In this document: positions 6,001-9,000 of the stretch, piece after piece
Layout: each line of letters starts with the position of its first letter
How positions within the stretch are numbered: position 1 is the stretch's first letter
Program-made: the position numbers
IMG/VR virus record: IMGVR_UViG_641736224_000028
Coordinates: 1 to 15,412 of that record
Direction: 5' to 3' (one strand)
DNA from: a virus
Taxonomy: Duplodnaviria > Heunggongvirae > Uroviricota > Caudoviricetes
DNA: 15,412 nt

Positions 6001-9000
6001 GATGTAACTCGCTAAACCATGCAGTTATGATCCCTGCCGCATAACCTTCATCAGCCACATTTTCAAAAATAAATTTCCTTATATATCAGAATCATACTTC
6101 GTAGAGTTAATAAATCACCAAAATTCGTACCAATAGTTCTTGATAATGTCGAACTATTGGTTCATTATTATCGTCGTCAGCAGGACGCATTACTCACCAG
6201 GGCGGTGAATATACAACGATTCGAATATGAATCTACGGCGCTGACAAAGCGCAATAACCAAAGTGAACTTTGGGGTGTGGTGAAGGGTTCATGGACGGGA
6301 ATATGTCGCACGTAAAGCGGCGAGGCCTGCGGGACTATTGCCGAATTGAAGTAGGCCGAAACAGGTCGAAATGGGTCTCCCACCTACCACACCACCAAAG
6401 TTCATCAGGAGGTCTATATGACACGCAGAACTCAGTTCAAAGGCAATTCACGTTCTCGTCGTCGTGAGCGTTTAAAGGCAAAGGCATTAGCTAACGGCGT
6501 GCTGGCCCGCGAAGAAGCAATAAGTTCAGAAGTATTACACCGCCCTACTCTAAGCAGAGCGCAGATTCAGGCTAAAGGTACTCACGAAACGCCTGAGCGC
6601 ATAGAAGACGCTAAGCCAATTAAGTTCATGGCACAGGACGTGATCTGGCAACAGAAAGAATACAGACGCAATCTGGAGCGAGCGGCCATTGTGTACGCGA
6701 ATGAGTTTGGACATAAGCAACCAGAAACTGGTGTATGTCTTCCAAACGTAGCTCTTTACGCGGCAGGCTACCGGAAATCAAAACAACTGACGGCAAGATG
6801 ACTTGTGTTGGTCGCCAGAAAATGAAATTAGGCAGCAAACCACTTATTTGAGAGGAATTAATATGTCATCAATCCGCTTAACTACGAGAATGAAAGAGGA
6901 AATCGCTCGTAACGCTTTAATTAAGTCCGGGGTGTTCACTGAACTTGAAGAAGTAACAAAGTTAAAGAACCAGCTTGCACTTGACGCCAGAGTTATTGCG
7001 TTTGGCGGTAAAAAGAAAACTGAGGAAGTGGATCGGTTATCATCCAAGTTGGTAGCTATAAGTGAAGAACTTGGAAAGATGGGATGTTCATTTTACTCAT
7101 ACGATGTTAGTTCTACTTCAATTTATCTGACTGTATCTGGCAGAAGGGTTGGATGGCATTCATATGGGAAAGACGGCAACGGCAAAGATATATTGCTCCC
7201 TACTCCGATCAAAGATAAATGCATGTTTGACGCAGAACACGAAATAACAAAAAGGTTTGATGAAATCTGCGCATTGCAACAAAAACTTGAAGCCAAGAAA
7301 AAGGATATCGAATCAAATGTATGGGCTGCTTTGAACTCAGTCACAACAGTTAAGCGACTTATTGAAGTTTGGCCTGAAAGCAAAGAATTGCTACCAAAAG
7401 AAGCAGATAAAGCAAGTACAGCACTTCCTGCTTTACGGGTAGAAGATTTGAATAAGATGATTGGACTTCCTTCCGAGGCCGCATAGTCGGCCTTTATTTT
7501 TGGCATAAACAACAGAATAAATACTGCACTGTGTATTCATTCCAACGAGTGAATACACGGAGCAATGTCGCTCGTAACTAAACAGGAGCCGACTTGTTCT
7601 GATTATTGGAAATCTTCTTTGCCCTCCAGTGTGAGGGCGATTTTTTATCTATGAGGATATGAATAGATGTCAAACATCAAAAAATACATCATTGATTACG
7701 ACTGGAAAGCATCAATAGAAATTGAAATCGACCATGACGTAATGACAGAGGAAAAACTTCACCAGATTAATAATTTCTGGTCAGACTCTGAATACCGACT
7801 CAATAAACACGGCTCTGTATTAAATGCTGTATTAATCATGCTGGCGCAACATGCTCTGCTTATAGCAATTTCAAGCGACTTAAATGCATATGGTGTTGTG
7901 TGTGAGTTCGACTGGAATGATGGAAATGGTCAGGAAGGATGGCCTCCAATGGATGGTAGCGAAGGAATAAGAATTACCGATATCGATACATCAGGAATAT
8001 TTGATTCAGATGATATGGCTATCAAGGCCGCCTGAGTGCGGCTTTACCGCATACCAATAACGCTTCACTCGAGGCGTTTTTCGTTATGTATAAATAAGGA
8101 GCACACCATGCAATATGCCATTGCAGGGTGGCCTGTTGCTGGCTGCCCTTCCGAATCTTTACTTGAGCGAATCACCCGTAAATTACGTGACGGATGGAAA
8201 CGCCTTATCGACATACTTAATCAGCCAGGAGTTCCAAAAAATGGATAAAACACTTATGGCTATCCAGACTAAATTCACTATCGCCACTTTTATTGGCGAT
8301 GAAAAGATGTTTCGTGAGGCCGTCGACGCTTATAAAAAATGGATATTAATACAGAAACTGAGATCAAGCAAAAGCATTCACTAACCCCCTTTCCTGTTTT
8401 CCTAATCAGCCTGGCATTTCGCGGGCGATATTTTCACAGCTATTTCAGGAGTTCAGCCATGAACGCTTATTACATTCAGGATCGTCTTGAGGCTCAGAGC
8501 TGGACGCGTCACTACCAGCAGATCGCCCGTGAAGAGAAAGAGGCAGAACTGGCAGACGACATGGGAAAAGGTCTGCCCCAGCACCTGTTTGAATCACTCT
8601 GCATCGATCATTTGCAACGCCACGGGGCCAGCAAAAAAGCCATTACCCGTGCGTTTGATGACGATGTTGAGTTTCAGGAGCGCATGGCAGAACACATCCG
8701 GTACATGGTTGAAACCATTGCTCACCACCAGGTTGATATTGATTCAGAGGTATAAAACGGATGAGTACAGCACTCGCAACGCTGGCAGGGAAGCTGGCTG
8801 AACGTGTCGGCATGGATTCTGTCGACCCACAGGAACTGATCACCACTCTTCGCCAGACGGCATTTAAAGGTGATGCCAGCGATGCGCAGTTCATCGCATT
8901 GTTGATCGTCGCCAACCAGTACGGCCTTAATCCGTGGACGAAAGAAATTTACGCCTTCCCTGATAAGCAGAACGGCATCGTTCCGGTGGTGGGCGTTGAT

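Follow-up and report, generated by a model that had tools for sequence, protein, structure and literature searches.

GACAA-loop hairpins as the nutL and nutR boxB elements of a 933W/H-19B-type early region in an IMG/VR phage record

The 15,412-nucleotide stretch of phage DNA presented above (IMG/VR record IMGVR_UViG_641736224_000028, positions 1 to 15,412; the window in what follows) contains two similar hairpin sequences, one upstream of a gene for an N protein and the other between cro and cII, and it was reasonable to ask whether these are the boxB elements of nutL and nutR, the N-utilization (nut) sites of a lambdoid phage, and if so to which N system they belong. The original prediction had proposed such an identity. 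Our analysis supports it and assigns the sites to a known group: positions 6238-6252 are almost certainly the nutL boxB, and positions 2725-2739 on the minus strand the nutR boxB, of a lambdoid early region of the 933W/H-19B, Shiga-toxin-phage-like type. This assignment draws on the sequence, position and folding of the hairpins, on the identity of the sites with known ones, on covariation in the stem, and on the joint switching of the boxB loop and the arginine-rich motif (ARM) of N, all of which were observed in this analysis. The features on which the argument turns are these:

6238-6252, plus strand: nutL boxB, the putative N-binding hairpin GCGCU-GACAA-AGCGC (DNA GCGCTGACAAAGCGC, RNA GCGCUGACAAAGCGC), from sequence, fold, identity with P22, conservation and covariation
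2725-2739, minus strand: nutR boxB, UCGCU-GACAA-AGCGA (DNA TCGCTGACAAAGCGA), from sequence, fold and a match to an H-19B oligonucleotide
6418-6801, plus strand: gene N, 127 amino acids, with the ARM 12-RSRRRER-18 (Pfam N_peptide, 1e-15; translation MTRRTQFKGNSRSRRRERLKAKA...)
2343-2639: cII (Pfam Phage_CII, 1e-31)

Both hairpins were found exactly where the original prediction had placed them, on the same strands and with the same sequences, and the 13-mer that they were said to share, CGCTGACAAAGCG, occurs in exactly two copies in the window (6239-6251, plus strand; 2726-2738, minus strand). The gene context given for them, with N downstream of the one and cro and cII flanking the other, was borne out by Pfam and the gene calls: the nutL boxB lies 166 nt upstream of the ATG of N, and the nutR boxB lies on the minus strand in the gap between cro, which encodes a small helix-turn-helix (HTH) protein, and cII. 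Both sites are early and promoter-proximal and precede the first terminators, nutL behind pL and nutR in the cro-cII interval upstream of tR1, and a cognate N with an N-terminal ARM is encoded after nutL. By itself the repeated 13-mer is unremarkable, the window containing 10 repeated 13-mers where shuffled sequence has 6.2 on average, and when 2 mismatches were permitted at least two matches to it arose in 12 of 200 shuffles; it is the combination of features that exceeds chance. These two are the only GC-rich hairpins with a perfect 5-bp stem and a 5-nt G..AA loop in the 15.4 kb, and despite their location on opposite DNA strands the GACAA loop reads in the sense of its own transcript at each copy (plus strand for pL, minus strand for pR).

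Folding of both leader RNAs, which had been suggested as a check, placed each boxB hairpin in the minimum-free-energy structure. Three hairpins make up the fold of the 71-nt nutL RNA (z = -3.3), the 5' one at 6194-6208, a spacer hairpin at 6218-6233 and, after UACG, the boxB at 6238-6252; the nutR counterpart gave z = -2.4. An RNAalifold consensus independently yielded the same boxB hairpin, and a purine-rich, GNRA-like loop on a short RNA stem is thus what the folds, the consensus and the covariation described below all contain. A search of the whole window against Rfam in E-value mode returned no nut or boxB family, the only matches being a cIII thermometer and one at chance level.

Over positions 5900-6852 the window shares 99.5% identity with phage 933W and 99.9% with several phages carrying Shiga toxin (Stx) 2a, and the leader at 6120-6420 is 100% identical in many Stx phages. 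The GenBank record of 933W (AF125520) annotates a nutL that corresponds to window positions 6186-6252 and a nutR that corresponds to 2725-2770, together with the tM terminator, oR1-3, pR, pM, cro, cII, cI, stk and N in matching order. Since the 933W annotation maps there, positions 6238-6252 form the boxB with which a nutL that had already been annotated ends on its 3' side. The nutR is moreover the site on which experiments with H-19B were carried out. Muteeb et al. (NAR 2012, PMC3526286) describe oligonucleotides RS662, RS663 and RS664 as antisense to the boxA, spacer and boxB of H-19B nutR, and RS665 as lying 'immediately after nutR boxB'; on the plus strand of the window RS662, RS663 and RS664 have exact matches at 2759-2782, 2740-2761 and 2720-2743, and by direct sequence comparison RS665 corresponds to 2700-2725.

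The N protein leads to the same system. The N of the window is 99.2% identical to that of 933W, and it has R3, S11, R15 and R18, so that the numbering of the H-19B ARM and its mutants fits. For H-19B N, the same work (PMC3526286) gives the ARM as 12-RSRRRER-18, the nut-binding mutants as R3H, S11F, R15C/P and R18P, and a C-terminal deletion of residues 101-127; the ARM mutants lost antitermination at H-19B nutR/tR1, where termination is Rho-dependent, a purified system of N, NusA and NusG antiterminated efficiently, and RNase footprints on nutR revealed N-dependent protection of the spacer and of the one G in the boxB loop. Judged by sequence identity, then, the window carries the experimentally characterised H-19B/933W N-nut system. 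The proposal that the hairpins are nutL and nutR therefore holds, with the 933W annotation at exactly these places and the nutR identical to the H-19B experimental site, and these nut sites are already known, having been annotated in GenBank since 1999 and having served for years in experiments on Rho and on antitermination by N.

We collected 250 loci, from 9 annotated phages and from three IMG/VR scans (for the N family of the window, for epsilon34-type N and for VT2-Sakai-type N), and de-duplicated them to 160 distinct N-plus-leader sequences. GCGCTGACAAAGCGC is kept in 79 of 79 loci in which N is at least 98% identical and upstream sequence is present, and these same loci differ in the promoter/operator (immunity) region, in the distance to nutR (1-5.5 kb) and in the interior of the N leader. 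Sixty of the 160 sequences have the ARM RRRERLKA(K/Q)A, with GACAA at nutR and either GACAA (56) or GUCAA (4) at nutL, while the 91 with RRRERRAALQ or RRRARRANLQ have a GAAA tetraloop at both sites; one or both sites were missing from the other 9, at a contig end or for want of a hairpin in the scan. ARM type and loop type thus switch jointly in 151 of 151 informative sequences, with zero exceptions, a GACAA pentaloop (GUCAA at nutL in the SPN9CC group) going with the LKAKA-extended ARM and a GAAA tetraloop with the shorter one. Of all the in-silico evidence, this concerted change of both nut sites and the RNA-binding motif of N speaks most strongly for the hairpins as the N targets.

Covariation within the stem was examined in 12 distinct nut sites (window family, P22 and lambda) in an equal-length alignment with an N for the missing tetraloop base. 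Of the cells in the boxB stem 96.7% are paired, 3 of the 5 pairs have compensatory changes, and the covariation score was 0.66 against 0.14 in shuffles, with 0 of 500 shuffles reaching 0.66 and slid registers giving at most 0.16. The spacer hairpins covary as well: the loop at nutL is variable and the stem is kept, with GUCGA/UCGAC in the VT2-Sakai type in place of GAUUC/GAAUC, and the nutR stem GGAC/GUCC becomes GGGC/GCCC (locus L126) through a G.U intermediate (L013). The presence of the spacer hairpin and the CUACG junction are fixed across the N classes.

Some relatives depart from the common form. In the SPN9CC group (L002, L119 and L120; N 87% identical, same ARM type) the nutL boxB reads GCUCC-GUCAA-CGAGC, so that the second loop base is U and the closing pair a C.C mismatch, and lies ~110 nt upstream of N in L002, Salmonella phage SPN9CC; the nutR of the group is UCGCU-GACAA-GGCGA. 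The same C.C closing mismatch occurs in the P22 nutR, CCGCC-GACAA-CGCGG. In L087 (IMGVR_UViG_3300045988_069239) the start of an N gene (ATGACACGCAGA) is joined straight to the 3' half of a boxB (GCGCAATAACC...), followed by a second full leader and N, a junction that duplication or recombination may have produced, or else faulty assembly.

It was not unreasonable to consider other origins for the two palindromes. Perfect inverted repeats near control regions could be DNA-level protein sites, operators for repressor, Cro or another regulator, but the operators of the 933W type are annotated elsewhere (oR beside pR; OL1/OL2 at ~6120-6164), the asymmetric GACAA follows the sense of the transcript on whichever strand the copy lies, the substitutions in the stem are compensatory and so keep pairing rather than sequence, and the loop type tracks the RNA-binding motif of N; an operator function is accordingly extremely unlikely. 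A hairpin that is stable, rich in GC and situated in a 5' leader might also be a terminator or attenuator, or serve only in the processing or stability of the N-leader RNA, and the same leader does contain a large lambda-like long-range stem. Yet no U-run follows either copy (AAUAACC; GUCCCAAU), a terminator scan called neither, the hairpin recurs in the pR transcript, where no N leader exists, and the joint switching of ARM and loop points to N binding, and we hold such a role on its own to be very improbable. In lambda, nutL-bound N also represses N translation, and because of this a second, non-exclusive role of nutL in the translational control of N is plausible. The view that the two hairpins are alike by chance and functionless gains something from the commonness of repeated 13-mers and from the shuffle counts given above; against exact conservation in every same-N locus with upstream sequence, across immunity contexts, together with covariation of the stem and identity with H-19B sites in experimental use, its likelihood becomes vanishingly small.

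We found nothing in the data of this analysis that contradicts the assignment of the hairpins as the boxB elements of nutL and nutR, though the evidence has its limits. The direct experiments drawn on here concern H-19B nutR. As regards a P22-like fold of the loop, the ARM of the window is identical to that of P22 gp24, the N of that phage, at only ~8 of 16 positions, and a phmmer search of the N-terminus of N against PDB sequences gave no match even at E = 10.

The two leaders in which the boxB hairpins lie contain the following elements, of which those of pL are given first:

6140-6168, plus strand: pL promoter (sigma-70), TTGATA-17-CATTAT, from a promoter scan
~6120-6164, plus strand: oL operators overlapping pL, from OL1/OL2 on the homologous bases of the phi24B record (H65)
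6186-6252, plus strand: nutL as annotated in 933W, its 3' end being the boxB hairpin (AF125520, 'nutL; putative N-utilization leftward', locus 5287-5353)
6194-6208, plus strand: 5' leader hairpin UCACC-AGGGC-GGUGA, not a nut element, from the fold; homologue of lambda CACC-AUGAA-GGUG and kept in all relatives
6209-6217, plus strand: position homologous to boxA, AUAUACAAC, in which the GCUCUUU core is missing and the 3' ACAAC alone is kept
6218-6233, plus strand: nutL spacer hairpin GAUUC-GAAUAU-GAAUC, from the fold; the 'dyad symmetry' of the H-19B nut sites
6263-6405, plus strand: long-range stem of the N leader, arms 6263-6281 and 6386-6405, from a fold of 6176-6430 (z = -4.4)
7475-7494, 7619-7640 and 8059-8078 (region 7475-8088), plus strand: intrinsic-terminator-like hairpins with T-runs downstream of N, from a terminator scan
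3037-3064, minus strand: pR promoter TTGCAA-16-CATAAT, from a promoter scan and the pR/oR annotation of 933W
2762-2770, minus strand: boxA-like CGCUAUUUU of nutR (DNA CGCTATTTT), with a natural C5A relative to CGCUCUUUA; covered by H-19B oligonucleotide RS662, and the start of the 933W nutR annotation
2744-2755, minus strand: nutR spacer hairpin GGAC-AUUC-GUCC, from the fold and oligonucleotide RS663
2640-2724, minus strand: tR1 region between nutR and cII with the hairpin AUGCGUUUCCACGCAU (2679-2694 on the plus strand), from sequence and fold; Rho-dependent in H-19B

The pL transcript would start near 6176, in a region that aligns with the lambda pL start ATCAGCAGGACGCAC, and the boxB of nutL lies at about +62/63 from this inferred start. 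The plan of nutR parallels that of nutL, with CGCUAUUUU, CACAAU, GGAC-AUUC-GUCC, UACG and then boxB. In nutL the UACG at 6234-6237 follows directly on the spacer hairpin and is invariant. More generally, the (C)UACG junction 5' of boxB (6234-6237; 2740-2743) is (near-)invariant at both nut sites in all three N classes, as is ACAA(C/U)G ahead of the spacer hairpin, whereas loops and boxA vary; these junctions might be contacts for NusA or N. The long stem of the N leader ends at the Shine-Dalgarno sequence AGGAGG of N (6407-6412), and both arms have their homologue in the N leader of lambda (CUUUGGGGUGUG...). The relatives keep the arms but vary in what lies between them, several IMG/VR loci (L027, for example) having a different, longer insert. 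The lambda N leader is a site of RNase III cleavage, and translation of N is regulated there.

It remained to account for boxA, which in the form C/UGCUCUU(U)A lies 5' of boxB in nut sites and which the original prediction had not found in convincing form beside either copy. For nutL that observation stands, since nothing within 2 mismatches of YGCTCTTTA occurs between pL and boxB. The homologous position reads GGTGAATATACAACG (also given as GUGAAUAUACAAC); relatives of the VT2-Sakai type have GGCTCTTTAAACAACG there, with the core GCUCUUUAA, directly preceding the spacer hairpin, and of this the window keeps the 3' ACAAC only. In P22 and lambda the boxA reads CGCTCTT(T)A. The nutL annotation of 933W begins with CGCATTACT at 6186, a segment that was considered as a boxA and rejected, because its homologue in lambda, CGCACTGAC, is distinct from the boxA there and comes before it. 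For nutR the observation holds only by half, for a boxA-like CGCTATTTT is present and is assigned as boxA by the naming of the H-19B oligonucleotides (PMC3526286), but it has 2 mismatches to the consensus, C5A included. The C5A change is of consequence in lambda, where it inhibits antitermination by N and greatly reduces the affinity of NusB-NusE (PMC3177189).

In a set of 75 IMG/VR loci that share this N (L012-L091), the boxA-like element of nutR is CGCTATTTT in 46, CGCTCTTTT in 27 and CACTCTTTT in 2, and the Salmonella relatives epsilon34, S137 and SPN9CC have no recognisable boxA at nutR. Across the relatives, then, two classes lack boxA at nutL, the critical C5 is polymorphic at nutR, and the Salmonella relatives have lost the element there, a pattern of polymorphism and loss that suggests relaxed selection on boxA. 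H-19B N is said to be independent of NusB and S10, and boxA to be dispensable to it; for this reason we read the failure of boxA as a trait of the H-19B variant. The missing boxA marks that variant and does not exclude membership of the nut family. The state of boxA at both sites also fits the reduced host-factor requirement of H-19B N that is announced in the title of Neely and Friedman 2000. As far as that title goes, the reduced need for NusB and boxA that the original prediction had deduced is the published conclusion for H-19B, and N, NusA and NusG suffice in vitro.

The comparative data can be read as a single N family in which the ARM and both boxB loops switched together and boxA decayed, by degrees, independently. 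This pattern is the one aspect that may be undescribed, though we think it rather unlikely to be so. If it were uncatalogued, N-boxB recognition and antitermination independent of NusB/NusE would have in it a natural specificity-swap series.

Taken with the published work, the 933W/H-19B assignment suggests how the sites would operate, N binding, the fold of the loop and antitermination itself being drawn from the literature or by analogy. On transcription from pL or pR, the nascent RNA would form a GACAA pentaloop on a stem of 5 bp, and the ARM of N (residues ~7-24, core 12-RSRRRER-18) would bind this loop, whose fold, to judge from the identical boxB of P22, is probably GNRA-like with a flipped-out C. 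While held on the RNA, N would act with NusA and NusG to modify the elongating RNA polymerase, which could then pass both tR1, where termination depends on Rho, and the intrinsic terminators that follow gene N; the terminator-like hairpins listed above are candidate targets of the N-modified polymerase in the pL operon. Unlike in lambda, the process would not rely on a functional boxA, none being present at nutL and that of nutR being crippled. N-dependent read-through from pL and pR drives the delayed-early gene expression of Shiga-toxin phages, and the present case illustrates that a sequence-only reading can locate nut sites correctly. The joint switching of ARM and loop, the natural boxA C5A and the P22-identical boxB could guide specificity-swap experiments.

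The surroundings of the nut sites are those of a 933W-like phage for part of the window. The product of cI is a protein with HTH and S24 peptidase domains, and between cI and pL lie four open reading frames (3852-5949, plus strand), including one for a 348-amino-acid Ser/Thr kinase homologue (stk of 933W, 4716-5762), the block ending at the annotated tM terminator (5928-5949) as in 933W; owing to this arrangement pL and nutL are ~2.3 kb from cI. A strong terminator-like hairpin (12-bp stem and T-run) at 2367-2394 on the plus strand lies antisense to cII, inside its 3' end, where lambda has the terminator of the oop RNA. Farther along, where the cIII/kil region begins, 8095-8153 on the plus strand matches Rfam Lambda_thermo, the cIII thermoregulator (RF01804; 88.5 bits, E = 7e-21). 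As a whole the window is mosaic: identity with 933W stops just past N (~6853), where the open reading frame at 6803-7486 differs from 933W L0079, and any one phage record covers at most 70% of the 15.4 kb, the best being phi330 and YYZ-2008 at 99.2% identity.

Among known systems, 933W and H-19B have the same nut sequences as the window, the same 127-amino-acid N with 12-RSRRRER-18 and the same dyad symmetries in the spacers, and no difference from the window was found inside the nut sites. The VT2-Sakai/epsilon34 type has the same plan at both sites (ACAAC-G, spacer hairpin, CUACG, boxB) and the same nutR stem, UCGCU/AGCGA, but its boxB has a GAAA tetraloop and its ARM lacks the LKAKA extension; in the VT2-Sakai type a canonical boxA is retained at nutL as well as at nutR.

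The original prediction had likened the hairpins to the lambda boxB, which it quoted correctly as GCCCT-GAAGA-AGGGC. The likeness in design is real, for the lambda sites occupy the same places in the transcripts from pL and pR and likewise carry a purine-rich pentaloop on a 5-bp stem, and the lambda pL leader is homologous both before and after the nut site, in the 5' CACC/GGUG hairpin and the CUUUGGGGUGUG arm. On the other hand, lambda has the loop GAAGA or GAAAA (boxB GCCCU-GAAGA/GAAAA-AGGGC) where the window has GACAA, a functional boxA CGCUCUUA where the window has none (nutL) or a C5A copy (nutR), and a spacer shorter than that of the window, which contains a conserved hairpin. Lambda N needs NusB/NusE.

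The closest model for the hairpin is instead the nutL boxB of P22, which is identical to that of the window at 15 of 15 bases (GCGCUGACAAAGCGC), the P22 nutL reading CGCTCTTTAACTTCGATGAT-GCGCTGACAAAGCGC. The two N proteins have in common the motif F-x-G-N-x-[KR]-[ST]-R-R-x-E-R, and BLASTP aligns their C-termini only, with 70% identity over 30 residues. P22 differs from the window in having a canonical boxA CGCTCTTTA near boxB at both sites, no spacer hairpin, and another stem in its nutR boxB (CCGCC..CGCGG). In the complex of the P22 N peptide with boxB (PDB 1A4T) the fold of the GACAA loop resembles GNRA, its C being looped out to lie on the peptide (PMC12550061), and by analogy N and boxB of the window may have a P22-like loop fold and binding mode.

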